Part shown: positions 3,988 through 45,498 of the stretch, piece by piece | Position numbering within the stretch: the stretch's first letter is position 1 | Layout: every line of letters begins with the position of its first letter | Origin: Eledone cirrhosa | Taxonomy: Eukaryota | DNA length: 64,000 bases | Direction: 5' to 3' | Assembly: GCA_964016885.1 (NCBI GenBank) | Contig: OZ024743.1 | Span: 330,522,001 to 330,586,000, forward strand | Translations under genes and position numbers: made by a program | Notes under the pieces: model-generated | Database searches by the model: none | What the model saw: only the letters and a program-made list of their open reading frames with translations | Told to the model about the DNA's origin: nothing

Positions 3988-4204
3988 CTATATATATATA
4001 TATGAAGTAATTCTGTCGGAAAAGTCCCAGGAAAAAAGAGTACTCTATGTAGGTAACAGAGCTTAATAGTTATGTAATAAACAACATAAGGCAATTATTC
4101 CATTTACCAGTGGTTTCTTAAAGGCAAAAAATTTTGCTTTCAATCCTCAGAATGAAAAAATCCTGGTCTGTTTATTGAATTTGGATTTTAAAAACAAAAA
4201 ATCT

Positions 4205-9135
<4,931 letters not shown>

Positions 9136-9168
9136 AGATCTAAAGATGGTTAAATGAGTTCCATGTAG

Positions 9169-9226
9169 TTTATTATGCGCATTTCAAAACAAATATCATC
9201 AAACATTAGTGTTTTCATCAGATAAA
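9169..9226 (-). ncRNA. Minimal type I hammerhead ribozyme motif (family B)
   Basis: Minus strand: TTTAT-CTGATGA-stem II-GAAA-TGCGCA-TA-ATAAA; palindromic stem III ATGCGCAT. Confidence 0.7.
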
Positions 9227-10044
9227 ATAGGAGGACATGATATGAAGGTTAAAAACACTTGTGGATAGTGCAGTTTTAAATCAACATATGAAAAGTAGTT
9301 TTAGATTGATGTGTGATATTGGGGAAAACATTTTTTTTTTTTGAGGGCGTGGGGTGGAAAGGATGAAAAAGAGGAAGAGATGAGAGTAAAAAGTGGAGGG
9401 GAGGAGTATAATGAGGAAGGATGAGATAGGAGGAGAGATGGCTGATAGAGAGAGAGAGATAGCTTTTATAACTGAGAAAAATATATTGTTTTACATAGAG
9501 AGGTTGAAAAACCGTTGGAAGATAATGTATAAATTAAAAGAATTTGAAAATTAACGAAGAGAAAAATAATGTAAAGTTAAGGTTTGTCTATTGAAGGGTT
9601 TAATATGTGCGATGAAAGAATTGTTAATATGTATTAAGAATAATATTTAAGGGTTTAATAATATGTGCGATGGAAAGAAAATGTTAATATGTATTAAGAA
9701 TAATTTTATGGGTTTAATAATATGTGCGATTGATATGTCTTATTAAAAAAAACAGAAGTAATTTAAGTAAGGATATATTGTGAGATGAGCATGAGTAAGT
9801 TAGATGAAAGGGGGAAAATAATAATGAATAGAGGATGAATAATCTAACGTAAAAAAAAATGTTTATGTTTACGAAGGATTTTTCAAGGTGATATAAAGTA
9901 AGAATATAGTGTATTGTGTAATAATTGTTTCTATGTTAGGCACAGTGAGAAAAGGTACAGATTAGGGTTAGAAATTAAAAAAAAAAGAAAGAAAAGGAAA
10001 AGGAAGAAAGGGAAGTGATGTGTACTACAATAAAACTCACCTCC

Positions 10045-10047
<3 letters not shown>

Positions 10048-10106
<59 letters not shown>

Positions 10107-10230
10107 TAGATATTTATATATATAGATAGATATTTATATATATAGATAGATATTTATATATATAGATAGATATATATATATATAGATAGATATTTATATA
10201 TATATATAGATATATATATATATAGATAGA

Positions 10231-10288
<58 letters not shown>

Positions 10289-10333
10289 GATATATATACA
10301 TATATATATATATATATTATAGATATATATACA

Positions 10334-10409
<76 letters not shown>

Positions 10410-10511
10410 TAGATATTTATATATATATATATATATATAGATAGATATTTATATATATATATATATATATATAGATAGATATTTATATATATATATATAT
10501 ATATATATAGA

Positions 10512-10578
<67 letters not shown>

Positions 10579-10613
10579 TAGATAGATATTTATATACATA
10601 TATATATATATAT
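10048..10613. repeat. (TA)n array with recurring GATAGATATTT unit
   Basis: Directly visible. Confidence 0.9.
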
Positions 10614-11397: not shown

Positions 11398-14300
11398 CTA
11401 CAGAACAATGTAGAGAGAAGGCCCATTTACACGGGCCATTCTCGCTTCTTTCACCCACCTTTCATAAAACTGTCTGGGACCAAGCACTTCTCTCTCCATC
11501 CTGATTCTTCTTCCGAAGTGGTATCGGAAGAAGTAAACCAGGTGATGGCCGGAGAGAAAGTCACCCGACCTCAGACCTTTCAGGCGCGTCCACCACACAA
11601 CCTCTTTCATCATGGCTATTACGCACAGAAAGACCGCCTCTGCTTCATTTCTGAAGGGAGGAGGCGGCTTGATGTTCACTACAGACTCGGCGGTTAATCG
11701 AATCGGCGCCACACGCGACAGCAGTCGGTCGACGTAGCCCCACAGATCGGCAACGCCCGGGCAGTGTACCAGTGCATGCGCAACGGTTTCCTCGTCGCGC
11801 ACGCATCTGGGACAGATCTTTTTCGCGGGATCCCTGCCCGGGCGCCCGTGTCTGTAGAGCTTTTCTCGAACGGGCAGAGCCCCCCGGTAACACTGCCAGG
11901 CTAGGGACCTCTGGAAGTTGTCCATGGGTCCCGGGCCGAAAGTTCTACCGAACAGGCTGGCCAGTTCGTCCTCCTCCATGCCTAGCGACTCTCCAAGGGT
12001 GTCGTCGCCCCTGCTAGCCACCAACCCTCTATAGAATGTCGAGGTGGATTCTCCACTGACAGTCGGGTCCGCTTGCCAGATAGCCGTGAGCGCCTGGGCA
12101 CACTCAGTGTGCCAGTTGCCCAGTTTTCTCGGTCTTTGCTTCACCCAGGATTGCAGTTCGGTGAGCGAGACGAGCTGTGGGAAGGCTCGCCTCACAAACG
12201 GGGCCCACACCGGCTGACCGTTGCGGAATACCTGTAGATGCCGTAGCCTCAATGCGTGCCTACGCATCAACAGCCACGGCATACCCAGCCCTCCTTTCGA
12301 AGGGTGCTGGCAGCAGATGGATCTCCTCACCATGGGAGGCCGCTTCTTCCAGAGGAACTGGAAGAGCATGCGTTCCATGATGGTGAGCTTTTCCTTGGGG
12401 CAAGGCACGACGGTCAGGCGGTAGTAGATGACGGACGCTATGTAAGCGTTCGTCACCTCCGCCCGACCTTTCAGTGATAGTTTGCACTTGGCCCACTTCT
12501 GGGTCAGCGCAAACACCCTGCTCGTCACCTCGCCCCAATTCTTCTCCACCTGGAGGTCCGGTCCGAACCAGACCCCGAGCACCTTCACCGGGCCCTCCGT
12601 CCACCGCCCGACGACACCGTCTAACGGCATCGGTTTGCCCCTCCACGTTCCGAGTTGCAAACCGACTGACTTGTCCCGGTTCAGCTTAGCCCCCGTCAGC
12701 CTTTCGTATTCCTCCAGTAGGGTGGCGATCGCCCCGATTTCCGAGGCGTCCGCCACCATTACTGTTACGTCGTCGGCATAGGCCGAGACCGCTTTGTGCA
12801 ATCCCGGTTCCAGGGGTATGCCCCGCAGCAACTCCAACTTCCGCAGCAGTGGCTCGAGAGTCAATACGTACAGAAGGGAGGAGAGGGGGCACCCCTGTCT
12901 GATGGATCGGGTGATTTGAAACGGCTCCGAGAGGTAGCCGTTTACTTTAATCCTAGAGTAGATGTTGCCACTGTGCATGGCAGAAATCCAGCCCCTGAAA
13001 ACGGGTCCGAAGCCCGCCGCCGCTAGCACCGCATCCAGGTAACCATGGTCGACCCTATCGAACGCCTTAGATTGATCCAAGTTGATCAGGGCTCCACCAA
13101 AGCCGGGTTCGTAGCCAACCCTCTCTATGATGTATCGCATGAGGTGGAGGTTGTCGTGAATGGACCTGGACGGGATAGCGCATGTCTGCGCGTCTCCCAC
13201 CAAACCACCCACCACAAGCGCCAACCTCTTCGCCAACACCTTGGCCAAAATCTGTAACTCTGCATTCAGCAGAGTTATGGGCCTAAAGTTACTTAAGTCG
13301 TCCCCCTTGCTCTCGTCCTTCCTCACTAGCGTGACCACGCCCTTGGTCACAGAACAGGGAATTCTCCCGTTCTGTTGCCAGTTGCAATAGACAGCCTCGA
13401 GGAGTTCGGAGAACAAGACCGGCATAGCTAAATAAAGTTCGTATGGTAGACCATCGAGACCCGGGGATTTGCGTCTGCTGCATTGGCTGAGCGCTTCCCC
13501 GATTTCAGTGGCTGTGATTGGCCGTTCGCAGCACTCCGCTTCGCCGCTCGAAAGACGCGGTAGACCGTCGAGGTATGGACCGAAGTCCACATCCCCGTCC
13601 GGCCCCCCGCCACCTCCGAACAGTCGAGCAAAGTGCCTTTGAAAGGTCTCGCACATTCGCTCAGGTTCAAGGATCACCCGTCCATCCTGGTCTCGCAAAG
13701 ACCGAATGGTGGATTTAATCCCACTCTTGGCTTCTGTCACGCGGGCCCAGCTAACAGCTTTGGTCCCCTCGTTTCCTAAAGCACGTATTTTACTTCGGAC
13801 AACGCAGCCTTCGTGCTTCGCGTCAAAGAACTGGCTCAATGCCGTTCTCGTCGCTAACACTCTGGCTACGTCTCCGCTCCTAATCGCCTCTTCTAGTTTA
13901 TCTGTTAACTCCCTTTCCCTCCTATTTCTATTCGCCGCTAGTTCCTTACTGTAACCTATCGAACTTACTCTAATCTCTCTCTTTAGAGATATCCACCACC
14001 TACTGTTGACGATCGCTCCCGTCAACCGCATCTTAACTAAGCTACTAATCCGGTTTCTGTAATCTTTCTTTGTCGGTAAGGACAAGTTCATCTTCCAGTA
14101 ACCGGGACCCTGTCTATGCGTTCTATCAAGGTTGACCACGCAGGTTACTAATTTGTGATCTGAATAGCCAACCATGATCAGTTTTGGACAACTAAATACG
14201 TCCCTATCCTTACTCCTAACCAAAAACCTATCTAGGTACGATCTAGATTGTCCACTGCGGTTTGCCCAGGTCCAGGTTGGCGCAGTTGGACAATCTAGTC

Positions 14301-14826
14301 GAAATCTATCGACCAGGTCGAATCGATCGAGTAACCCCTTGAGGCTGCTACACCCCCCTCTATCGGGACATGCCCCTGCATAGTCCCAACGCGCATCTAG
14401 GATTCCATTCCAGTCCCCCACTAAAAGCAGGGAACGCGACGTTCCTAGAAAAGTCTCCAGACGTTGGAAGAAGTCGGCTCTCTCCGCCCCGAAGGGAGCA
14501 TAAAGACCGACCAGTCTGAAAGCCCCGCCTTCACCACCTCCGACGTCCAGCACCAGTAATCGACCCCCCGGGTCCGAGTGAACAATCTGTACGTCGAGAG
14601 TCAGACGTTTATCCAGCAGTACGGCAACTCCCCCCCCGCCTCCGGGTTGACAGAGAGATGCGTGCATCTCAAAGTCATCGAAGGCGGGCGCCAGCTGTCT
14701 CACGCTGCTGATCCGACTCTCGCAAACAACCATCACATCTATACTTTGTGACCTGAGGTCACTTAGAAGCTTTGCTTGCTTCCAAGCTGAGCTCAGGCCA
14801 CGCGCGTTCAAACAGCCAACTCTCAA
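11398..14826 (-). CDS. E2 ORF2: APE endonuclease / reverse transcriptase / C-terminal zinc finger (~1142 aa)
   Basis: NARGL, GDWN, YLDRF, SDH; QGCPLS, YADD; CPRC...HALVHC. No ATG at the start: the aligned start codon is ATA at 14835-14833. Confidence 0.95.
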   Translation of the reverse strand: MRVGCLNARGLSSAWKQAKLLSDLRSQSIDVMVVCESRISSVRQLAPAFDDFEMHASLCQPGGGGGVAVLLDKRLTLDVQIVHSDPGGRLLVLDVGGGEGGAFRLVGLYAPFGAERADFFQRLETFLGTSRSLLLVGDWNGILDARWDYAGACPDRGGCSSLKGLLDRFDLVDRFRLDCPTAPTWTWANRSGQSRSYLDRFLVRSKDRDVFSCPKLIMVGYSDHKLVTCVVNLDRTHRQGPGYWKMNLSLPTKKDYRNRISSLVKMRLTGAIVNSRWWISLKREIRVSSIGYSKELAANRNRRERELTDKLEEAIRSGDVARVLATRTALSQFFDAKHEGCVVRSKIRALGNEGTKAVSWARVTEAKSGIKSTIRSLRDQDGRVILEPERMCETFQRHFARLFGGGGGPDGDVDFGPYLDGLPRLSSGEAECCERPITATEIGEALSQCSRRKSPGLDGLPYELYLAMPVLFSELLEAVYCNWQQNGRIPCSVTKGVVTLVRKDESKGDDLSNFRPITLLNAELQILAKVLAKRLALVVGGLVGDAQTCAIPSRSIHDNLHLMRYIIERVGYEPGFGGALINLDQSKAFDRVDHGYLDAVLAAAGFGPVFRGWISAMHSGNIYSRIKVNGYLSEPFQITRSIRQGCPLSSLLYVLTLEPLLRKLELLRGIPLEPGLHKAVSAYADDVTVMVADASEIGAIATLLEEYERLTGAKLNRDKSVGLQLGTWRGKPMPLDGVVGRWTEGPVKVLGVWFGPDLQVEKNWGEVTSRVFALTQKWAKCKLSLKGRAEVTNAYIASVIYYRLTVVPCPKEKLTIMERMLFQFLWKKRPPMVRRSICCQHPSKGGLGMPWLLMRRHALRLRHLQVFRNGQPVWAPFVRRAFPQLVSLTELQSWVKQRPRKLGNWHTECAQALTAIWQADPTVSGESTSTFYRGLVASRGDDTLGESLGMEEDELASLFGRTFGPGPMDNFQRSLAWQCYRGALPVREKLYRHGRPGRDPAKKICPRCVRDEETVAHALVHCPGVADLWGYVDRLLSRVAPIRLTAESVVNIKPPPPFRNEAEAVFLCVIAMMKEVVWWTRLKGLRSGDFLSGHHLVYFFRYHFGRRIRMEREVLGPRQFYERWVKEARMARVNGPSLYIVL

Positions 14827-14831
14827 TTGAT

Positions 14832-16667
14832 CTATTTTGGTGTTGAAAGTGAAGAAAGAAAAGCACTTACCTCTCCGGGTTGCGTAATTTCCATGGCATC
14901 AGGTGTGTTGGGTGGAGGGATGTTTTGTGGTGGTGTGGGGGTACACGTGTGTGGTGGGGTTGGGGTATTTGGAGTTGTGTCAGGGAGAGGGGCGGTTATG
15001 GGGAAATCTTTCAAAAGGACGCGATTCAACGGTTTTAAACAGGGGGGGCTCACGTCCCGTCTAAATTGTTCTTTTAAGGAACGATAAAGGTCCAGAGGGA
15101 CCTTTATCATTTTTAAATGGGTGAAGTTCTCTGTTGAGATAAAGTTTGGCCCTTCGGTCTGCACCATAGGGTTATTGTTTATTAATTTAACCAGTTTTTT
15201 GTTTTCTTTATTTATATATGTGTATTGCAACGTCTTTTTTTGTGATGCTGTCAATGTTTCGGAGAGGGGAGGCGCAGATTTATTTTTGTTTGTTGAGGGT
15301 GGGGTGTTTTTGATTGGAGTTGGTGTTTGTGTGTGGGTTATTTGTGGTGTGCTGGGTGTGTGTTTTCTTTTTTTTCTTTTAACTTGTCTGAAGGCTTCTC
15401 CTCCTTCTTCTTCAGAAGTTGGGGGAAACTCTTCAGCGCTAGGTGGGAGGGACGTGTTGTGTGGTTGTTTTTTTTTTGCGGGAGGGGTAGATTTGTTACT
15501 GTTTTTTTTATTATTTGTTTGGAATGGGTTTTGTGGTGGTGGTGGTGGTAATGTTTGTGTCGTGCTTGTGGTTGGTAATGGTGGTGGTGATGTTTGTGTT
15601 GTGGTTGGTGGTGGTGATTTTTGTGTCGTGCTTGTGTTTGGTGCTGGTGGTGGTGATGTTTGTGTTGTGTTTGTGGTTGGTGGTGTCTGTATTTTGTTTG
15701 CTGTGTGTGGTATTAGTGTATTTTTGGAGGTGGGTGGTGCTGGTGTACTGTTTGTGGTGGGTGTGGGCAATAGTCCTTTTTGGGGGATACGTTTCGGGCA
15801 GTTAGCCTTAACGTGTCCCCTTTCCATGCATAAATAGCATGCTGGTCTTCTCCCCTCTACAATTATGTCTATTGGGGTAAGGTCATCCAGCCAGATGCGA
15901 TCCGGGATTTGTGCTATTCTTTCGGGCCTCATTTGGACTAGTATGTCGAGGCCCATTCCCAGGAACGCATCTCCAGTTGCCTTCCCCATTGACAGCATAG
16001 TGTCTTCGCCCATATCAATGAAGCCAGCAATAGCCCACCAGAAGTCCATTGTGGGCAGCATTGTTTTTACTTTTATTCTTTGTGTTCTTCTACCCATGTA
16101 GGAGGGATAGAAGCTATATGTTGTCGACGAGAGTGGGCTTAGGGAAAGCTGAACCGCCGTTTCTTTGTCTCTTGTTAGGACCGAAATGCTGCCATAGAGT
16201 CGGTCCTTTCGTATGAAGAGAATATTCTTCATATAGTCTTTTAGGACTAACTCTATTTCCATTTGGCTGGGCTGTGCTGGCTTTCTTGACTGGTTTAGTA
16301 TAGTTCTGTATATAACTGTGTTTTCTGCTCTGGCTTTCTTGAATTCTGGGGGGGAGTTAATGGAAAACATTCCGTTCTCCCCCAAAACAATATGTTTCTT
16401 TGCTTCGGCCAGTTTTTCTCTGGCGGCAGTTAGGTCAATTGGTGTGTATGTAATGGATTGCTTTGTTTTCTGGGCGAAAGTTGCCCTGTCGTTATTTGTA
16501 TTATTTTCTGTTTGTTTGTTTTCTGTTTGCTCATTTTCCTTAACATTTGTTTTTTCATTTTGTTTGTTTGTTTCAATGTCTAATTTTGTTGTAATTATTT
16601 TTTGTTCTTCAGACTTGGGGGGCGTGGCAGAGCTAATGGCAGACATGTCTGCCATCTTTTCCGCCAT
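14832..16667 (-). CDS. E2 ORF1: nucleic-acid-binding protein with CCHC knuckle (611 aa from ATG 16667)
   Basis: CYLCMERGHVKANC knuckle, Pro/Thr-rich linker, basic KRKKRK tract; lies directly upstream of ORF2. Confidence 0.9.
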   Translation of the reverse strand: MAEKMADMSAISSATPPKSEEQKIITTKLDIETNKQNEKTNVKENEQTENKQTENNTNNDRATFAQKTKQSITYTPIDLTAAREKLAEAKKHIVLGENGMFSINSPPEFKKARAENTVIYRTILNQSRKPAQPSQMEIELVLKDYMKNILFIRKDRLYGSISVLTRDKETAVQLSLSPLSSTTYSFYPSYMGRRTQRIKVKTMLPTMDFWWAIAGFIDMGEDTMLSMGKATGDAFLGMGLDILVQMRPERIAQIPDRIWLDDLTPIDIIVEGRRPACYLCMERGHVKANCPKRIPQKGLLPTPTTNSTPAPPTSKNTLIPHTANKIQTPPTTNTTQTSPPPAPNTSTTQKSPPPTTTQTSPPPLPTTSTTQTLPPPPPQNPFQTNNKKNSNKSTPPAKKKQPHNTSLPPSAEEFPPTSEEEGGEAFRQVKRKKRKHTPSTPQITHTQTPTPIKNTPPSTNKNKSAPPLSETLTASQKKTLQYTYINKENKKLVKLINNNPMVQTEGPNFISTENFTHLKMIKVPLDLYRSLKEQFRRDVSPPCLKPLNRVLLKDFPITAPLPDTTPNTPTPPHTCTPTPPQNIPPPNTPDAMEITQPGEVSAFLSSLSTPK

Positions 16668-16943: not shown

Positions 16944-19900
16944 ATTTCTTTTATTTGCCACTAGGGCATCAAAAGTGGGACAAGTACAAAGGGGGGAGTT
17001 TACACAAAAAGGCATCCTCAATAAGGAGGAGGCAATAACAAAATATAAAAATAAAATAAGATATAACAAAAAATAAAATTTTTAACAAAATCCTCAATAG
17101 AGAGGAGGCGCCTTGGGGGTTCGCACACACCCCCGAAAAAAGTGTGCAACCCTTCTCCTCAGGAGCACAGAGAAGGGGTGCTCCCTTGGTCTTTCATCTT
17201 CCTCACCTATAGTCTGATGTAGAGTGAAGGCCCATTCACACAGGCCATTCTCGCCACTTTCACCCATCTTTCATAGAAACGGCTGGGGTGCAGCACCTCT
17301 CTCTCCATCCTGATCCTTCTTCCGAAATGATATCGGAAGAAACGGACCAGTTGTTGGCCAGAGAGAAAGGTGCCCGACCTCAGTCCTTTCAGACGCGTCC
17401 ACCATACAACCTCTTTCGCCATGGCTATTACGCACAGAAACACCGCCTCTGCTTCATCTTTGAAGGGGGGAGGCGGCTTGATCATTACAATAGACTCGGT
17501 GGTCAACCGGATCGGTCCCACCCTTGACAGCAGTTGTTCGACATAGCCCCACAGATCGGCTACGCCCGAGCAGTGTACTAATGCGTGTGCAACGGTTTCC
17601 TCGTCGCACACGCATCTGGGACAGATCTTTTTGGCGGGGTCCCTACCCGGGCGCCCGTGTCTGTAGAGCCTTTCTCGAACGGGTAAAGCCCCTCGGTAGC
17701 ACTGCCAGGCCAGGGACTTCTGGAAGTTGTCCATAGGTCCCGGGCTGAATGTCCTACCGAACAGGCTGGCCAGTTCGTCCTCCTCCATGTCTAGGGCTTC
17801 TCCGAGGGCGTCGTCGCACCTGCTGCGTACCATCCCTCTATAGAATGTTGCGGTGGAGTCTCCACTGATAACCGGATCCGCCTGCCAGAGGGCGGTGAGC
17901 GCCTGGGCACACTCAGTGTGCCAGGCGCCCAGTTTTCTCGGTCTTTGCTTGACCCAGGATTGCAGCTCGGTGAGTGAGACGAGTCTGGGAAAGGTTCGTC
18001 TCACAAACGAGGCCCACACCGGTTGTCCGGTGAGGAATACGTAGAGGTGCCGTAGCCTTAATGCGTGTTTACGCATCATTAGCCACGGCATCCCCAGCCC
18101 TCCTTTCGAAGGGTGTTGACAGCAGATGGATCTCCTCACCATAGGAGCCCGCCTCTTCCAAAGGAATTGGAAGAGCGCGCGCTCCATCTTGGTGAGGGTT
18201 TCCCTTGGGCAGGGCACTACGGTCAGGCGGTAGTAGATGACGGACGCTATGTAGGTGTTCGCCACCTCCGCCCGACCTTTCAGGGATAGTTTGCAACTGG
18301 CCCACTTCTGGGTCAGTGCAAACACCCTGTTCGTAACCTCCGCCCAGTTTTTCTCCACCTGGAGGTCCGGTCCGAACCAGACCCCGAGCAACTTCACCGG
18401 GCCCTCCGTCCAGCGTCCGACGACGCTATCGGAGGGCATCGGTCTGCCCCTCCACGTGCCGAGTTGCAAACCGATCGACTTGTCCCGGTTCAGCTTAGCC
18501 CCTGTGAACTTTTCGTACTCCTCTAGTAAGGTGCCGACCGCCTCGATTTCGGAGGCCGTCGACACCATTACTGTCACGTCATCGGCGTAGGCCGACACCG
18601 CTTTCCGCAATCCCGGTTCCAAAGGGATGCCCTGCAACAACTCCAACTTCCGCAGTAGTGGCTCGAGAGTCAACACATACAGAAGGGAGGAGAGAGGGCA
18701 CCCTTGTCGGATGGACCGCGCGATTTTGAACGGCTCCGAGAGGTAGCCGTTCACCTTGACCCTAGAGCAGATGCGGCTGCTGTGCATAGCAGTGATCCAG
18801 CCCCTGAAAACGGGTCCGAAGCCTGCCGCCGCTAGCACCGCATCCAGGTAACCATGGTCGACCCTATCGAACGCCTTAGATTGATCCAAGTTGATCAGAG
18901 CCCCACCAAAGCCGGGTTCGTTCCCAACCCTCTCTATGATGTATCGCATGAGGTGGAGGTTGTCATGGATGGACCTGGACGGGATAGCGCATGTCTGCGC
19001 ATCTCCCACCAGGTTGCCCACGACAAGCGCCAACCTCTTTGCTAGCACCTTGGCCAAAATCTGTAACTCTGTATTTAGCAGTGTTATGGGCCTGAAGTTA
19101 CTTATTTCGTCCCCCTTGTTCTCGTCCTTCCTCACTAGCGTGACTACGCCCTTGGTCACAGTACAGGGAATTCTCCCGTTCTGTTGCCAGTTGCAGTAGA
19201 CCGCCTCGAGGAGATCGGGGAACAAGTCCCGCATAGCTAGATATAATTCGTAAGGAAGACCATCGAGACCCGGGGATTTGCGTTTGCCGCATTGGCTCAG
19301 CACGTCCTCTATCTCAGCGGCCGAAATCGGCTCCTCGCAGGACTTCGCCTCCCTGTCCGAGAGGCGCGGCAGGCCGTCGAGGTATGGACCGAAGTCCACG
19401 TTCCCAACCGGCTCCCCGCCCCTCCCGAACAGTCGGGCAAAGTGCCTTTGAAAGGCCTCACACATCTGCTTAGGCTCAAGAATCGCTCGTCCATCCAGGT
19501 CTCGCAAAGACCGGATGGTGGATTTAGTTCCACTGTTGGCCTCTGTCACGCGGGCCCAGCTAACAGCTTTGGTCCCCTCGTTCCCTAGAGCACGTATTTT
19601 ACTTCGGACAACGCAGCCTTCGTGCTTCGCGTCGAAAAACTGGCTCAAAGCCGTTCTCGACGCTAGCACTCTGGCCACGTCGCCGCTTCTAATTGCCTCT
19701 TCTACTCTATCTATTAGCTCCCTTTCCTTCCTATTCCTATCCGCAGCTAGAACCTTACTAAATTCTATCGAGACTACTCTAATCTCTCTCTTTAGAGATA
19801 CCCACCACCTGCTGTTGACGATCGCTCCAGTCAACCGTTCCTTAACTAACGTACTAATCCGATTCCTGTAGGCTCTACTTGCCGGCAAGGACAAGTTGAG

Positions 19901-20823
19901 CTTCCAGTAACCGGGGCCCTGTCTATGAGTTCTGTCAAGGTTGACCATGCAGGTCACTAATTTGTGGTCTGAATAGCCAACCATGCGCATTTTTGGACAA
20001 CTTAAAAAGTCCTTATCCTTAATTCTAACTAAGAACCTATCTAGGTACGACCTAGATGATCCGCTACGATTTGCCCAAGTCCAGGTTGGCGCAGTCGGAA
20101 AATCTAGTCGATATCTATCGGCCAGGTCAAATCGACCGATTAACCCTTTGAGGCTATTACACCCCTCTCTATCGGGGCAGGCCCCTACGTAGTCCCAGCG
20201 TGCATCTAGGATACCATTCCAGTCCCCCACTAATAGCAAGGAGCGGGACGTCCCTAGAAAAGTCTCCAGACGATGGAAGAAGTCCGGCCGCATTGACTCG
20301 AAAGGGCCGTAGGCGGCTACCAACCTAAACGCTCCGCCTTTACCACTGCCAAGGTCCAGAACCACTAGTCGACCCTCCGGGTCCAAATGTACCGTCTGTG
20401 TTGCGAGACCCAGATGTTTTTGCAGCAGAACGACAACTCCACCCCCACCTCCGGGCTGACAGAGAGATGCGTGCATCTCAAAGTCATCAAAGGTGGGGGC
20501 CAGCTGTCGCACGTTGCTGATCCGGGCCTCGCAAATAACCATCACATCTATACGTTGTGACCTGAGGTCATTTAGAAGCATTGCTTGCTTCCAAGTTGAG
20601 CCCAGGCCACGCGCATTTAAACAGCCTACTCTTAGCATAGCCATGTTGGTGGTGAAGAGAAAAGGCACTTACCTCTCTGCGTCCCGGGTATCGGGCTGCT
20701 CAATTTCCATTAGGGTGGGGGATGGGTTGTTGGGTGGGGTGGTGGTTTGTGGAAGTGTGGGGGCATCAGTGTGTTGTGTGGTTGGGGAGCTTGGAGTTGT
20801 GAGGGTGTTTGGGGAGGGGGTGG

Positions 20824-20864: not shown

Positions 20865-20959
<95 letters not shown>

Positions 20960-21055
20960 GATATATATATATATATAGATATATATATATAGATATATAT
21001 ACATATATATATATATATATACATATATATTTATATATATATATATATACATATA

Positions 21056-21097
<42 letters not shown>

Positions 21098-21102
21098 TAT
21101 AC

Positions 21103-21165
<63 letters not shown>

Positions 21166-21300
21166 CATACATATATATATATATACATATATCTATATAT
21201 GTACATATATATATATATATATACACATATACATCTATATATGTACATATATATATATATATATACATTATATACATTATATATATATATATATACATTA

Positions 21301-21336
<36 letters not shown>

Positions 21337-21403
21337 CCTATATATATATATATATATACACCTATATATATATATATATATATATGTATATAAATATATA
21401 TAC

Positions 21404-21450
<47 letters not shown>

Positions 21451-21461
21451 AATATATATAC

Positions 21462-21509
<48 letters not shown>

Positions 21510-21523
21510 ATATATGTATATAA

Positions 21524-21555
<32 letters not shown>

Positions 21556-21615
21556 GTATGTATATAAATATATATACATATATATATATATATGTATGTA
21601 TATATATGTATATAA

Positions 21616-21659
<44 letters not shown>

Positions 21660-21661
21660 AC

Positions 21662-21695
<34 letters not shown>

Positions 21696-21702
21696 ATATA
21701 TG

Positions 21703-21749
<47 letters not shown>

Positions 21750-21763
21750 ATATATGTATATAA

Positions 21764-21805
<42 letters not shown>

Positions 21806-21819
21806 ATATATGTATATAA

Positions 21820-21861
<42 letters not shown>

Positions 21862-21875
21862 ATATATGTATATAA

Positions 21876-21919
<44 letters not shown>

Positions 21920-21960
21920 ATATATGTATATAAATATATATACATATATATATATATATA
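20860..21960. repeat. Interrupted (TA)n array with a higher-order unit in its distal half
   Basis: Directly visible; TATGTATGTATATATATGTATATAAAT recurs at about 21380-21950. Confidence 0.92.
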
Positions 21961-22000
21961 ATAATATATAAGATCAAAAGATGGTTAAAAGAGTTCCATG

Positions 22001-36397: not shown

Positions 36398-37729
36398 ACA
36401 TGCATACATTTATTTTTTTTAAAATTAATTGAGGTCTTAACACGCAGGATTAAAATTATTTAAAAAAAACTAATTAACCCACGTGTATATTATTTTACTT
36501 TCTTGTGTTTCGCGATTGCCTCCCTTTTCCGCTTCATGACGCTGTGAAATTCCTCAGTCTAGGACTGCTGGAATTTCAAATTTGGCGGTCATTATGATGC
36601 GTGAAGGGACGACTTAGCTGACACGAAAAATAACTGCGGTAAGAAAAAACTTTTCTTATATCAAAGTCTGAATGGCATCCACTGATGATTTATAAGTGCC
36701 CACCTGCATATGTTCTTACAGAAAATTATGTAGGCTTCTACATAAACCGGATACATTCTCCCAACTTGTAGAAGACTTATAATGAAACAATTGTTTGGAA
36801 AGAGAGATATATTTTAATTTTTAATTATATCTCATATAAAATAATGCAACTGGCTTTCCACAAAATACATATAGTTAGCACCCCAAACACAACATTGGGA
36901 TTATACTAAAGTATATCCTAATGTTTGTTGAGTGAGATGGTAGCCAGTCAGAGTTTAGCTTAAAGCTATCTCTGTTATTGTATTACATATTTTACTCTTG
37001 ATTTGGCCAGAGAAATATATTTCCAGATACCTTTTAAGCGTAACTTTCCGTATTTATTATTGTTATGAAATATGAATTGTTATTTTGGTATCATATCTCT
37101 GTTTTTAGCCTAACAAAATATCTATATGCGTGTGTAATTAATACATGCATACATTTATTTTTTTTTAATTAATTGAGTTCTTAACACGCAGGATTAAATT
37201 TGTTTTTAAAAAAACTAATTAACCCACGTGTATATTATTTTACTTTCTTGTGTTTCGCGATTGCCTCCCTTTTCCGCTTCGTGAGGCTGTGAAATTCCTC
37301 AGTCTAGGACTGCTGGAATTTCAAATTTGGCGGTCATTATGATGCGGGAAGGGACGACTTAGCTGACACGAAAAATAACTGCGGTAAGAAAATTGTTTTC
37401 TTATATCAAAATCTGAAGGGCATCCACTGATGATTTATAAGTACCCACCTACATATATTCTTACAGGAAAATATGTTAGGCTTCTACATAAACCGGATAC
37501 ATTCTCCCAACTTGTAGAAAACTTATAATGAAACAATTGTTTGGAAAGAGAGATATATTTTAATTTTTAATTATATCTCATATAAAATAATACAACTGGC
37601 TTTCCACAAAATACATATAGTTAGCACCCCAAACACAAAATTGGGATTATACTAAGGTATATCCTAATGTTTGTTGAGTGAGATGGTAGCCAGTCAGAGT
37701 TTAGCTTAAAGCTATCTCTGTTATTGTAT

Positions 37730-37730
<1 letters not shown>
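36398..37730 (+). repeat. Tandem duplication, 745-bp period (~1.8 copies)
   Basis: ACATGCATACATTTATTTTT at 36398 and 37143; CTGATGA at 36682 and 37427. Confidence 0.9.
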
Positions 37731-37776
<46 letters not shown>

Positions 37777-38635: not shown

Positions 38636-38672
<37 letters not shown>

Positions 38673-38673
<1 letters not shown>

Positions 38674-39015
38674 TAGCAGAAATACCCGGCGTTGCTCAGG
38701 TGTTAAATAGCAGTTATGTATACCATTTATGTCAATACTTCAGTGCTGCTTCGAAAACTATACTTTTACAAAGGAGTGACCAGGAGTACGTTGTTCGGTA
38801 TTATTACGATAAGGTGTAGCAGGGAATCCCGCGTGAACTAACAGCTCGGGAGGAAACTGCTTACCTCGAACATTCATTCACCATCGTTCTTGTCAACGCT
38901 CCGTTTACTTGGTATTTGTTGGTCTACAGTTAGATGAATGGTACAAAGGGTTAATGTTTATTGGCAAGAAGTTTTTTGAATAATAAAAGACGGGTTAAAG
39001 CGACCTTCAATGTAT
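38673..39015 (-). mobile_element. Non-autonomous Helitron-like fragment, 3' terminus at 38673
   Basis: Minus strand CCTGAGCAACGCCGGGTATTTCTGCTAG|T: subterminal hairpin plus CTAG before T. Body homologous, inverted, to 44060-44320. Confidence 0.65.
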
Positions 39016-39023
39016 CTGTGTGT

Positions 39024-39068
<45 letters not shown>

Positions 39069-39296
39069 TGAGATTCTACAGGACTAGAACTGCTTCATTC
39101 TTTAGAAATCATCAGGAATCTGTTTATCAAAATATAAATATGGTATTTATAGGTCTCTTCAGGTGGTAGAAGAGGGTAGGGAGTGGGATGGGTGTAGGTC
39201 ATTGGTTGATAGAAAAGGTAATTCATTAAAAGCTCTTTCTTCATAGCTATAGTTTATATTTAGAGTAACAAAGGCAGAAAGAATTCTATAAACAAG

Positions 39297-39359: not shown

Positions 39360-40992
39360 TTACGCACCGTATACCTCCCTGTCAGTCGATTGAACGTTTG
39401 AAAGTATATACTTTCCTTATGCATATTAATGGCTGAGTAGCCTAATTTACATATCGAGTGAGTTAGTTGGCCGGGTGTGCCGAAAACGATAAATGGAAAA
39501 ATGAAATTTCATTTCTCACTCTTAGTACGGTTGATACTTAAATATAAGTATGTATACGTACATACATATATGTATTCAGACGTACAGTAGTATATACATA
39601 CATGCACACATATATATATGTACGTATGGGTTTACCGAACATTTATTATAATGCTCGCTTTTATAATGCTCATTTTTTCCATTATTTCCAAACTTCGAAA
39701 CTGACAGGTCCAGCTCGACCTACCGGATAGAGTATGACCTACCGGATAGAGCCTGATGAGATGATCAGGACCAGGTATACAGATACTATTGCGTCCAAAT
39801 CCATAGAACTCCCTTTGGGGTTAAGCTGGAATCTGAAGTTAATTCAGCAAATAAAGTATTTTGGTAGACTATCCGCTGAGCTCGTAATAAGAAGTCTCTC
39901 TCCACGCCTGTTATTAAGAACTCATGTGTTCGGATCAATGCTGCTAAGTCGTAACCATTCTATGTGGGTGTCGGACATCGCCAAAGACGCATATTGTAAT
40001 GCCGTCAGTTCACAACCGTCATAAACAGGATTGACATGCGCAACCGGTTTGGAATTGGTATCAAACCCAGCGAGTGTTAGATCAATCGGGTTAGGTTTGC
40101 TGTACGACAGGAATGAACATCAGTGTTGTAATGACTGAGACTCTAGTCCTATTAAGAAAGCCTACGTAGTATGCTCTGCGTGGGAGCAGGTGGAGAACTA
40201 ATCGGCCCCGTTTTCACGAGTGGCTTATACTACGGACATGGGGTTAGAATGTCTCAGGAAAGAATCGCTGAACAGATTTAACGGGAAAAGCCAACCTGCA
40301 GGACACCCAGAGGTAGACTACGAGCAAGATGGTTGGATAACATCTATGACGTCGCTTGGATCATTTGGCGACGGTTACTTTTAAGCATGTCCAATGACTC
40401 GGCTCTCCACAACCAACTCAGGAATAAGTGGGCGAAGAGAAGATAGTGTAGGTAAAACGTGGATAATATCGTGTGGAAAATAAGTGATGTGTAAAATAGT
40501 GGGTCAATATTGATTCGCAGATAAAATAATTGGGTAAAATGGTGGGTAAATTAGTTGGTCATTAGTGAATGTTGGGTAAAATGGTGGATAGATAGTGGCT
40601 TGTTAGTAAAATAGTGGACAAATATGAATTGTGGGTAACAACAGATAAAATCTCAGGCTGCAGATAAATAGATGTTGATCAATTGACAGTTAAACTTCTT
40701 AACATGAATATCCAGCCGATAATCGAAAACATCAGCGACAACAAAAGAAAAATCAATTATTGATCTCTACCCGTGACTTCCCTTAAATCACGTATATATA
40801 TGAATATCTTTGTGTTGGAAAAAGGTGCTCATGATAGAGAGCCCATTACTAAAACAGAATTCTAATAAGGCCTCTCCATTCGCATTTTGATCGGGCTTGC
40901 CTTTTCTTCCAAGCACTTCTTGTCTGGGGGTCAGTGCCAATATGTGAATGGAAGCCTTCCATTAGGATTTTACTAATCATTATATGCATATG

Positions 40993-41051
<59 letters not shown>

Positions 41052-42026
41052 CGGTGTGTGTCTCTGTGTGTGTGCGTGAGAGTGTGTGTGTTTGATCGTA
41101 GACGAATTTAATCCGGCTCCATCTGAGCTCAGATCAAATCCTGCCACGCTCAATTTTGTCTTGGACGAGGTGATTAGCTGTACATGTTCCAATTCTGTAC
41201 GTTCTGTGTTCAAATTCTGCTTTCTGCCACCGAAAACCGCAGCGACACTACTACCAGGAGTTTTTACGAGTGTAACAGCAAATGAAGATCCTATGGTAGA
41301 ATTATTTTTTATCCTTTCCTTTCTTTTAATGTCTACATCGTGTTGCTTATTGAGATTATGGACATATTTAACGATCGTGATACCTGTTCCTGTTCACGCA
41401 TTCGAATAGAAAAGCAGCCCCACCACTCTTTTACACCACATTTGGCAACTGAAAGATTAGGCAACACAATATTTAATATAAGTTGGCAGTGACAGAATTA
41501 TCCAACCCACATTCCGGAGGATGTGGATCACGCTGTTTATGCACCGGTGAAATCATGCTAAACTCAAAGAGTAAGCACATTTCAAAATGTCGTCACCAAA
41601 CAAGTTTATTCTAAAAACATTTATTTTACCTTCAGGTTGAATTTAAGTGGAGATTTTCTGATTTTTTTTTAATTTCGCGTTATTTTTGAAATTCATTAAT
41701 ATGTCAAAATCAATCCAGTAGTTAAATTGAAACAAAATGAAAACGAAATTTCATTTCTCACTCTTAGTATGGCACTTACTTAAATGTAAGTATGCATGTA
41801 TACGTACATACATATATGTATACAGACGTACAGTAGCATGCACATATATATATATATATATACATATATATATACATATGCATACAGGTACACATACATA
41901 TATGCACGTATCAGTTTAGCGGCGCTAACGTCGCTTTGTTCGTTTGTAAACAAACTGAACAGCCTGAATTTATGCCATACGGTGTTAAGGCAACCACGTC
42001 ACCTTTTTGTTCAATACTGACACAGG

Positions 42027-42071
42027 AACGATGTACTAGTTTCAAGCTTGTTAGCTATCATCAGCACCGTT
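42027..42071 (-). ncRNA. Minimal type I hammerhead ribozyme (family A)
   Basis: AACGGTG-CTGATGA-T-AGCT-AACA-AGCT-T-GAAA-CTAG-TA-CATCGTT on the minus strand. Confidence 0.85.
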
Positions 42072-42312
42072 TACCCATCTGCCAGATAGTTGAACGTTCG
42101 AAAGTATATACTTTCCTTATGAAAATTAACGGCTGAGCAGCCTAATTTGCATATTGAGTGAGTTAAATCGGTCAGGCATACCGAAAACGATAAATTGAAA
42201 CAAAATGAAAACGAAATTTCATTTCTCACTCTTAGTATGGCACTTACTTAAATGTAAGTATGCATGTATACGTACATACATATATGTATACAGACGTACA
42301 GTAGCATGCACA

Positions 42313-42344
<32 letters not shown>

Positions 42345-42496
42345 CATATGCATACAGGTACACATACATATATGCACGTATCAGTTTAGCGGCGCTAACG
42401 TCGCTTTGTTCGTTTGTAAACAAACTGAACAGCCTGAATTTATGCCATACGGTGTTAAGGCAACCACGTCACCTTTTTGTTCAACACTGACACAGG

Positions 42497-42541
42497 AACG
42501 ATGTACTAGTTTCAAGCTTGTTAGCTATCATCAGCACCGTT
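42497..42541 (-). ncRNA. Minimal type I hammerhead ribozyme (family A)
   Basis: Identical motif 470 nt from the first. Confidence 0.85.
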
Positions 42542-43033
42542 TACCCATCTGCCAGATAGTTGAACGTTCGAAAGTATATACTTTCCTTATACATATATGT
42601 ATGTACGTATACATGCATACTTACATTTAAGTAAGTACCATACTAAGAGTGAGAAATGAAATTTCAGGCATAAATTCAGGCTGTTCAGTTTGTTTACAAA
42701 CGAACAAAGCGACGTTAGCGCCGCTAAACTGATACGTGCATATATGTATGTGTACCTGTATGCATATGTATATATATATGTATATATATATATGTGCATG
42801 CTACTGTACGTCTGTATACATATATGTATGTACGTATACATGCATACTTACATTTAAGTAAGTGCCATACTAAGAGTGAGAAATGAAATTTCGTTTTCAT
42901 TTTGTTTCAATTTATCGTTTTCGGTATGCCTGACCGATTTAACTCACTCAATATGCAAATTAGGCTGCTCAGCCGTTAATTTTCATAAGGAAAGTATATA
43001 CTTTCGAACGTTCAACTATCTGGCAGATGGGTA

Positions 43034-43078
43034 AACGGTGCTGATGATAGCTAACAAGCTTGAAACTAGTACATCGTT
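43034..43078 (+). ncRNA. Minimal type I hammerhead ribozyme (family A)
   Basis: Same motif in the inverted arm; GTA cleavage triplet; palindromic ACTAGT stem III. Confidence 0.85.
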
Positions 43079-43468
43079 CCTGTGTCAGTGTTGAACAAAA
43101 AGGTGACGTGGTTGCCTTAACACCGTATGGCATAAATTCAGGCTGTTCAGTTTGTTTACAAACGAACAAAGCGACGTTAGCGCCGCTAAACTGATACGTG
43201 CATATATGTATGTGTACCTGTATGCATATGTATATATATATGTATATATATATATATATGTGCATGCTACTGTACGTCTGTATACATATATGTATGTACG
43301 TATACATGCATACTTACAATCCAGTAGTCAAATGTCGTTCAAAGATATTTCGCAGGAGACTGAAAACTCTTAATAAACAGTTTTAGCTCATCTTCCATAT
43401 TCAATATTGGTACGAGAACTGGAATCACTCTGCGAATCTTATACGTATCTTGTATTTACGTTATTCTA

Positions 43469-43620
43469 TCTATATATATAAAACTGTTGTGATCTGTGTG
43501 AGTGTGTCCTCATTTTTGGAAAGTCTATACAAATCCACATTTCTACTCCGATTGACTTAAAATTTGCATTTATATATTCCTTGCGGTCTAACTGCAGCCT
43601 TTATTTTTCAATTTTCTGTT
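43469..43620 (+). mobile_element. Possible Helitron-like 5' end
   Basis: A|TCTATATATATAAAACTG start, then TG-rich sequence and CCGATTGACTTAAAATTT; resemblance only. Confidence 0.4.
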
Positions 43621-43779
43621 GTTAAAGAGGTGTAGGCGCCGGTTATTGATCACCGTCGAGCCCTTATAATATCTGTCTGTATGTCTGGCTGTCTGCATAG
43701 CGACATTCTGACGAACTCGTCATTGCTGACGTATTATCTTCGCTACATTTACACACACACACACACGCACTTATATACT

Positions 43780-43833
<54 letters not shown>

Positions 43834-43958
43834 TACATATACACACACATATATACACATATACATATATATATATATACATATACAAACACATATACAC
43901 ATATATACATATACACATATACACATATATAAATAAAGACATAAAAATATATGTATAT

Positions 43959-44014
<56 letters not shown>

Positions 44015-44318
44015 ATGTGTGTGTGTATCTGTGTATATATATGTATATACACAGATACATTGTAGGTCGCTTTAACCCGTCTTTTATTATTCAAAAAACT
44101 TCTTGCCAATAAACATTAACCCTTTGTACCATTCATCTAACTGTAGACCAACAAATACCAAGTAAACGGAGCGTTGACAAGAACGATGGTAAATGAATCT
44201 TCGAGGGAAGCAGTTTCCTCCCGAGCTGTTAGTTCACACGGGATTCTCTGCTACACCTTTTCGTAATAATACCCAACAACGTACTGCTGGTCACTCCTTC
44301 TTCCAAAAGCCGTACAAA

Positions 44319-45059: not shown

Positions 45060-45498
45060 TGTGTAAATCTTATGCATTTCTACAGTATTTTCACCAAACT
45101 TAAGACATAGATCACTTATGTACTCCGGATGATCATGGGCACCTTCATTTTCCAGATATTGATTATAGGGCCTCCCGGCAGATAACCCCCCTCAACCGCT
45201 TCCTTGGAGTCGACTGAAGCATTGCAGTTCAATGCAACACAACGTCATAACTTCTAGTGTTCGCAACCGATTTTCACAAAACTTGACACGTGGGCTACGT
45301 TTGTTCTACAGATGAATGTGAACTCTCAGAATTGGCACATATTGAGTAGGGGACCCCTGGGAGCAGGAACCCCCTTTTGGAAAAAGCCGATGATTTTGTA
45401 AAAGTAGTGTTTTCGAAGCAGCACTGAAGTATTGATATAAATGGTATACATAACTGCTATTTAATACCCGAGCAATGCCGACCGGGTACCTATGCTAG
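45060..45498 (+). mobile_element. Helitron-like fragment, 3' terminus at 45498
   Basis: TACCCGAGCAATGCCGACCGGGTA hairpin followed by CCTATGCTAG|T. Confidence 0.6.

Follow-up and report, generated by a model that had tools for sequence, protein, structure and literature searches.

A block of hammerhead-bearing repeats, set in tandem and then inverted, lies within a 64-kb stretch of the Eledone cirrhosa genome (the window, that is, the whole stretch of DNA that was analysed). The locus raises the question of which machinery inserted a repeat that encodes no protein, and from what kind of template. Non-LTR retrozymes, as known from other animals, have been proposed to be non-autonomous derivatives of Penelope-like elements (PLEs) (PMC7229834, 10.64898/2026.07.22.740005), and PLEs have been named as the likely movers of animal retrozymes, without a motif in the repeats that points to a helper (PMC7761336, PMC7229834). 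The mechanism of mobilisation is left open in a 2026 preprint (10.64898/2026.07.22.740005).

Anatomy of the Inserted Block

The block consists of two arms joined head to head, both with outward-pointing 3′ ends (Table 1); unit positions (q) are numbered from the predicted hammerhead cut. Two places only in the window, 41711-41722 and 43317-43328, carry CAATCCAGTAGT, which forms the 12-bp target site duplication (TSD) that the earlier note had placed on both sides. Its span is 10-12 bp, in that the final two bases of the right arm, CA, are also the opening two bases of the TSD. The repeat of about 470 nt in tandem and inverted copies described in that note is confirmed as well: the cut-to-cut distance (42503..42034) is 470 nt, and the inversion is head to head. 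Its three identical hammerheads are present with stem I AACGGTG/CATCGTT, the CTGATGA and GAAA boxes, the palindromic ACTAGT and the GTA triplet. The patch at the inversion junction likely arose when the reverse transcriptase (RT) jumped templates via short microhomologies. GC content is 0.335 at 42001-44000.

Table 1. Features of the block and of the related fragment in the window
Feature	Position	Strand	Remarks
Left TSD, 12 bp	41711..41722	+	flank single-copy in genome
Left arm	41723..42590	-	q384-470, one full unit, q1-313; long (tail-bearing) 3′ site at end
62-nt tail, q252-313	41723..41784	-	at left-arm end only
Type I hammerhead 1	42027..42071	-	core 42064-42034; predicted cut 42034/42033
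Complete cut-to-cut monomer, 470 nt	42034..42503	-	ORF-less; predicted circle
Octamer ATGCAAATTAG (q352) and TATA (q394)	42104..42152	-	resembles host U6 promoters; candidate
Length-variable (TA/TG)-rich core, long hairpin	42254..42373	-	holds insertion-specific variants
Type I hammerhead 2	42497..42541	-	core 42534-42504; predicted cut 42504/42503
78-nt patch, q214-291, at inversion junction	42588..42665	+	overlooked in the earlier note
Right arm	42667..43318	+	q58-470, q1-251; short (tail-less) 3′ site; last 2 nt common to TSD
Type I hammerhead 3	43034..43078	+	core 43041-43071
Right TSD	43317..43328	+	
Older family fragment, about q100-440, 79% identical	39364..39655	-	without catalytic core

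The block is one young copy among at least 10,000 insertions and is not unusual in itself. It is atypical only in its target, which is unique DNA instead of (TA)n, and for this reason the TSD is visible in the window's copy. The proposal of a recent, single RT-mediated insertion fits the exact TSD and the family data given below. An older, diverged copy had also been reported nearby; the copy is real (39364-39628, 79% identity over 287 nt), but it stops just before the catalytic core, which is missing.

Inversions that carry microsatellites are prone to misassembly, and a chimeric or fold-back long read might mimic such a block. The left flank, the TSD and 26-29 nt of the element are found with 0-1 differences in short-read contigs, a length below the 31-letter bridging rule; these contigs come from three runs of one sample, possibly the source of the DNA, and the read check covered the left junction. 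The exact TSD, the left junction in these contigs and the recurrence of the same non-palindromic short/long architecture at 51 loci make an assembly artefact a negligible prospect. No empty-site junction was found in the short-read contigs at a depth of about 4, a result without weight for or against an empty allele. A further run of unrecorded kind, X9, with contigs that total 88 Mb, contains the element and lacks the unique flank, from which nothing follows.

Several other features of the window are recorded here in their own right. Inverted pairs of dispersed repeats flank the block (38771-39069 with 44001-44299, and 38687-38772 with 45395-45480; 91% and 93%), and the repeat at 38670 starts in the manner of a Helitron/DINE-type element. 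A direct duplication of about 745 nt (95-97%) spans 36414-37736; its CTGAGGA...GAAA stretches were rejected as hammerheads, helix I being missing. Degenerate (TA)n tracts, kilobases long and with GC of 5-16%, occupy 4000-10600 and 20900-22000 and are of the type that the family targets. Two long open LINE-type ORFs, of 1165 and 1152 aa and with Exo_endo_phos, RVT_1 and zf-RVT domains, lie on the minus strand (11398-14898 and 17207-20668), and other, broken copies are scattered over the window. Sequencing runs under 15 organism labels and a wastewater metagenome contain 0.34-0.94 of the words of the stretch; cover was deep and family-wide in organism A only, and relatives, diet and carry-over are indistinguishable. 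No RNA data set is among the runs listed as containing the stretch.

The Hammerhead Ribozyme

Each ribozyme has a helix I of 6 bp with a long conserved extension, a helix II of 4 bp with a U.U at its base, and a palindromic helix III. In an alignment of 43 diverse family copies selected by their core (5 of 48 were dropped for indels or junctions), helix I, three extending helices, helix II and the A15.1-U16.1 pair are paired in 95.5% of cells, against 30-41% in slid controls. One helix I pair appears as GU in 25 copies, UG in 9, AU in 7 and CG and GC in 1 each, and is never broken. The covariation score lies above all 500 shuffles, and pairs changed on both sides number 2 of 27, no more than in shuffles (484/500). 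The extension of helix I pairs both ends of the monomer, as would be expected of a circle or multimer, and is kept across subfamilies that are about 80% identical.

The earlier note had suggested a helix III of the dimer type, which the palindromic six-mer fits; such a helix requires a second ribozyme for cleavage (PMC4209133). Its assignment of the motif to the minimal type of PLEs has to be revised. Minimal hammerheads have a helix II of 7-8 bp, a helix I of 4-5 bp and no helix III (PMC4209133), whereas the helix lengths given above, the extended helix I and the palindromic helix III place this ribozyme in the canonical metazoan type, with the axolotl motifs (PMC7229834). RNA of the repeat is predicted to cut itself. 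Two published observations were counted against the explanation preferred below: the ribozyme is dispensable for insertion in a PLE in vitro system (PMC11167929), and eight of nine frog retrozyme dimers were uncleaved (10.64898/2026.07.22.740005).

A search of the window against Rfam gave no match at the gathering score; below threshold, all three cores matched Hammerhead_HH9 (18.5 bits, E 0.23). The Rfam miRNA matches in the window were dismissed as microsatellite noise. A fold z-score of -8.6, driven largely by the microsatellite hairpin, was set aside, and a two-strand fold of the ribozyme region, in which the catalytic dimer is not the minimum-energy form, was uninformative.

The Repeat Family

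In the 3.0-Gb genome there are 24,414 exact matches to a 33-nt hammerhead-core pattern (0 for the reversed control) and 4,480 to a 31-mer diagnostic of the window's subfamily. Complete units measure 420-592 nt, arrays reach 19 units, and at least two subfamilies, about 80% alike, can be distinguished. At 24,000 copies of about 450 nt the family is estimated to make up roughly 10 Mb of the genome, which it seeds with (TA)n-rich hairpins.

Neither the block nor the complete monomer contains an ORF. The earlier note had raised the possibility of an adjacent PLE ORF with RT and GIY-YIG domains, the combination that marks an autonomous PLE with an endonuclease (EN+); none lies in or beside the block. 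By tblastn no PLE-type ORF was detected in the window, where the long ORFs are LINE-type, nor in 506 kb beside family copies, bar one distant match of 24%. The block is thus a copy of an ORF-less hammerhead tandem repeat family, a non-LTR retrozyme: the arrays are dispersed and ORF-less, with a type I hammerhead in each unit, GC below 50% and a TSD longer than 4 bp. The description of the unit as retrozyme-like was therefore apt, and to it the family data add a PLE integration signature.

The Integration Footprint

The outer 3′ ends of the arms fall at two fixed sites of the unit, q251-255 (short) and q313-314 (long), 59-62 nt apart. All 51 typed two-armed head-to-head insertions have one short and one long end; short/short and long/long pairs number 0. 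These 51 comprise 23/23 among 55 loci sampled by position over the initial 22 Mb of contig 1, 14/14 from the most similar copies (22 loci) and 14/14 from the youngest subfamily (18 loci), with the repeated block of L140 counted once and L142 twice. Left out were false anchor calls (L085, L144 and the inner matches of L001 and L131), L117, whose arms face inwards, and loci with one end untyped (L082, L089, L107, L112, L123, L138, L143, L012, L020, L027 and L028); about 13 two-armed loci have one untypable end, and L027 among them could be short/short. Scored ends run into (TA)n in 107 of 120 cases, and long-end/(TA)n junctions number 10,026 genome-wide. One copy inside a multicopy repeat (L133) is bounded by a 9-bp duplication, and all 13 paralogues fetched are empty.

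Two fixed 3′ ends that flank a tail, a tail at one end only, and AT-rich or (TA)n targets are what is expected of an element mobilised by PLEs. Taken together, the ends, the tail and the (TA)n targets identify a non-LTR retrozyme that bears a PLE integration signature, and mobilisation of the PLE type is very probable for the family. A PLE protein, we infer, primed each of the two target strands at its own site on the retrozyme RNA. The link to PLEs, which earlier papers only proposed, is here backed by an integration signature.

One arrangement departs from this pattern. At L117:2386-5840 two arms of the youngest subfamily, one with a short and one with a long end, face inwards, 1.3 kb apart, possibly through an inversion linked to the insertion; their 5′ ends almost coincide in unit position (q344 and q350).

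Penelope-Like Elements of the Host

The autonomous RT/GIY-YIG elements of the host genome served as a control. Families A-D were found through PF01541, which gave 10,596 candidates; of these, 150 were scored, and 50 loci were read. The copies of these families, too, stop before (TA)n at two fixed sites, and each of the 12 head-to-head pairs that were typed combines a short with a long end; an ambiguous locus (L050), an inward-facing one (L031) and three untyped rows were left out. A tail at one end of inverted PLE insertions was already known qualitatively (PMC3846280, PMC8557442), and the strict count of one tail per insertion turns this observation into a constraint on mechanism. In vitro, the RT of a lizard PLE starts at two sites that flank its tail, and the protein, a predicted dimer, cuts both strands of AT-rich DNA (PMC11167929).

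Family A has a 66-nt tail and, before the GIY-YIG domain, a CX2-5CxxC finger, a mark of Neptune/Nematis (PMC8557442). All 150 scored copies share 98-100% protein identity, and 22 have an open frame of 775 aa; family A is a very young Neptune-type PLE that is currently amplifying. Besides this common frame there is a separate upstream frame that starts just past the tail, and the family may have two ORFs. In the pLTRs of families A, C and D (L061, L066, L073 and L042), hammerhead-like stretches upstream of the tails have a palindromic ACCGGT helix III and GAAA without a CTGAnGA box, and are possibly atypical ribozymes; family B has a regular core with a U.U at helix II, as in the 470-nt unit.

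Whether family A supplies the helper protein is a more doubtful matter. Its tail and the unit share only a 12-mer (p 0.002 for that pair, uncorrected for four families), which is absent from older unit subfamilies, and we put forward family A as the helper only tentatively. No autonomous element with the unit's sequence was present in the 50 GIY-YIG loci read of about 10,600 candidates; in 3 of the 50 the unit is present, either as an unrelated neighbour or as a nested insertion.

The repeats might instead be ordinary 5′-truncated pLTR fragments of an autonomous PLE yet to be found. The tail, inversion, TSD and hammerhead are all features of PLE pLTRs (PMC8557442, PMC3846280), but the units are ORF-less and abut head to tail up to 19 times, and of 41 arm starts without the tail anchor, not one continues upstream into a common ORF or UTR. 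The sole upstream stretch that is shared, before two arms of L133, was considered as a parent UTR and rejected, as it belongs to the target repeat. This explanation is already largely refuted, and we regard it as very improbable.

Circular or Linear Template

Among the 67 units of 15 young arrays, the mean number of changes is 1.16 within an insertion, likewise 1.16 across arms, and 3.24 between insertions. Of 105 units, 71 have their nearest neighbour in the same array, 25 are tied and 9 have it elsewhere. In L174 one private substitution and one private microsatellite recur in all six units of both arms; L117, L173, L176 and L179 show a similar pattern of private variants. The arms cross the ribozyme site without a scar. 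Their 5′ ends are evenly spread (uniformity p 0.73), with 0 of 34 within 5 nt of the cut (0.8 expected by chance) and 2 of 34, with no peak, within 5 nt of the predicted promoter start. The absence of 5′ ends at the cut is weak evidence for a circle, because only 0.8 of 34 would be expected there by chance.

Private variants present in both arms, together with 5′ ends placed without regard to the cut, are what rolling-circle copying of a single monomer circle predicts and speak for an RNA circle as template; such copying has been proposed for retrozymes and PLEs (PMC7229834, PMC4209133). A circular template seems somewhat more probable than a linear multimeric one. A few arrays are mosaic, which speaks against monomer circles as the only template: L136:2526-4273 is an ABAB array in which units 2 and 4 are identical and A differs from B by 15-17 changes, L139 has units that are 25 changes apart, and in L171 and L172 units of two lengths occur together. 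These four arrays indicate that some templates were multimeric or that arrays were reworked later; they can be explained by dimer circles, linear multimers or later duplication, and it is possible that the heterodimer arrays of L136 and L139 were copied from dimer circles.

The same PLE-driven integration could have used uncleaved linear read-through transcripts of an existing array, with no circles formed and with the hammerhead a relic or acting elsewhere. The mosaic arrays, the dispensability of the ribozyme for insertion in vitro (PMC11167929) and the fact that homogeneous source arrays would also yield homogeneous daughters are compatible with such a template. Arms of 15 units and a helix I extension that links the monomer ends and is conserved across the diverged subfamilies argue against it, as do many insertion-private haplotypes fixed in both arms, which would need repeated passage through a single unit. 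A linear template of this kind is, in our view, unlikely.

Unequal crossing over has been discussed as a route to arrays (10.64898/2026.07.22.740005), and single units might have been inserted and then expanded in the manner of a satellite; local duplication could account for the stretches of identical adjacent units in L172 and for the ABAB order of L136. However, the arms start at random phases, and both inverted arms are multimeric with common private variants and near-zero divergence, the TSD-bounded copy of the window included. Such expansion is highly improbable as the origin of the arrays.

A Candidate Internal Promoter

Three independent U6 loci of the host (L151, L152 and L153) carry ATGC(A/T)AAT(T/G)AG at -76 to -78 and a TATA near -30; this octamer-like motif, at about -77, lies directly before the proximal element and is missing from three other distinct upstream regions. 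The unit has ATGCAAATTAG at q352 and a TATA at q394, a spacing of 42 nt against 44-48 nt in the host U6 loci. Such a pair arose by chance in 19 of 200,000 resamples, the motif having been chosen after the data were seen. By its sequence, this pair would start an RNA near q421-429, just upstream of the ribozyme; runs of T4-T7 in the tail of the unit would stop Pol III before the second ribozyme. On balance we doubt that the internal promoter is functional, and retrozymes seem to lack promoters (PMC7761336).

The upstream regions of host U1 and U2 do not contain the unit's motif, and the comparison disclosed no Pol II snRNA promoter of the newt type. These U1 and U2 regions (L189, L191, L214 and L216-L226) have no octamer; instead, (A)TCAGT is found at about -57 and, at about -30, a stretch resembling a TATA box. 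In the vertebrate layout the octamer lies near -220 and U1 and U2 have no TATA, so that the host differs. An snRNA-type promoter is reported for newt satellite 2 (cited in PMC2220036). In the older subfamily (L108, L111, L134 and L136), a perfect 5′ splice-site consensus, AAG/GTAAGT, at q386-394 overlaps the TATA-like motif; the younger subfamily has GA in place of its GT.

Proposed Mechanism

We consider it probable that the block records a recent insertion of an ORF-less non-LTR retrozyme, likely via a Neptune-type PLE RT/GIY-YIG protein and probably from circular RNA. The cycle would begin with transcription of an array, by read-through or from the octamer and TATA motif. Paired hammerheads, joined by a 6-bp intermolecular helix III, are predicted to release 470-nt monomers, which a host ligase would circularise. 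The PLE protein would then nick the two strands of its target, which is AT-rich and in most cases (TA)n, at positions that here would be 10-12 bp apart, and cDNA would be primed at q251-255 on one strand and at q313-314 on the other, as suggested by the footprint seen in the genome. Each RT would travel round the template over 0.2 to 15 units, the ribozyme site included. Finally, the two cDNAs may be joined head to head at microhomologies; the product would be a block of tandem and inverted copies in which a single end carries the 62-nt tail.

A bolder proposal, which we think rather unlikely, is that the unit is a self-sufficient RNA-circle parasite of PLEs, with its own U6-like promoter and ribozyme and no sequence kinship to its helper; the subunits of a PLE RT dimer would each prime one target strand, at two fixed sites on one circle, with rolling-circle copying in both arms. 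If this holds, the rule of one short and one long end would prove, from the genome, that in all EN+ PLEs two subunits act on one RNA, and that retrotransposition in animals can be templated by circRNA.

That a hammerhead repeat without an ORF shows the complete PLE integration footprint, alongside an amplifying PLE family, bears on which element moves retrozymes, and integration from an RNA circle, if it occurs, would show how such animal elements spread. The family is a ready test system: its RNA of 470 nt is defined, two priming sites are predicted, and there are candidate proteins. In the literature surveyed, which included few subscription papers and not Repbase, we found no report of this family, of the PLE tail rule on a retrozyme or of octopod hammerhead repeats.

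Comparison with Known Systems

In L1 twin priming, priming once on each of the opposite target strands gives an inversion with outward 3′ ends and microhomology at the junction. The block differs from such insertions in having no poly(A) end and in that both priming sites are fixed and internal.

The closest structural parallels are EN+ PLEs of the Neptune clade and Poseidon_Ac, which share partial tandems, an inverted 5′-truncated arm, a tail at one end only, TSDs of 8-12 bp, (TA)n targets and a hammerhead upstream of the 3′ ends (PMC11167929, PMC8557442, PMC3846280). The present repeats differ in the lack of an ORF, in a tail of 59-62 nt rather than 30-40 nt, and in arms of up to 15 whole units; with the host PLE pLTRs examined they share no homology beyond a 12-mer. 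Non-autonomous Chlamys elements such as MRC1 likewise have PLE partners and multicopy head-to-tail insertions, but they have 3′ sequence in common with the helpers, and their clade lacks canonical hammerheads (PMC8557442).

Xenopus retrozymes derived from PLE pLTRs have also been proposed as non-autonomous PLE derivatives (10.64898/2026.07.22.740005). There the link consists of co-occurrence and pLTR homology in vertebrates, whereas here it consists of an integration footprint, with no parent pLTR found; the available parts of that vertebrate-centred study contain no analysis of ends or inversions.

Metazoan non-LTR retrozymes of coral, mussel, axolotl (Rtz331 and Rtz353) and newt (satellite 2) resemble the family in several respects: the tandem unit is ORF-less and low in GC, every repeat carries a type I hammerhead, TSDs are longer than 4 bp, and copies number tens of thousands; the weak palindromic helix III recalls axolotl HHR_Amex1, and the U.U at the base of helix II recalls HHR_Amex2 (PMC7229834). 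Cleavage and circles have been demonstrated for those elements and are predicted from sequence here. The retrozymes reviewed in PMC7761336 are reported to have no apparent promoter and no conserved motif that points to a helper. The present family, by contrast with those retrozymes, does give away its mobilising machinery, through arms joined head to head, 3′ ends at two fixed sites and insertion into (TA)n.
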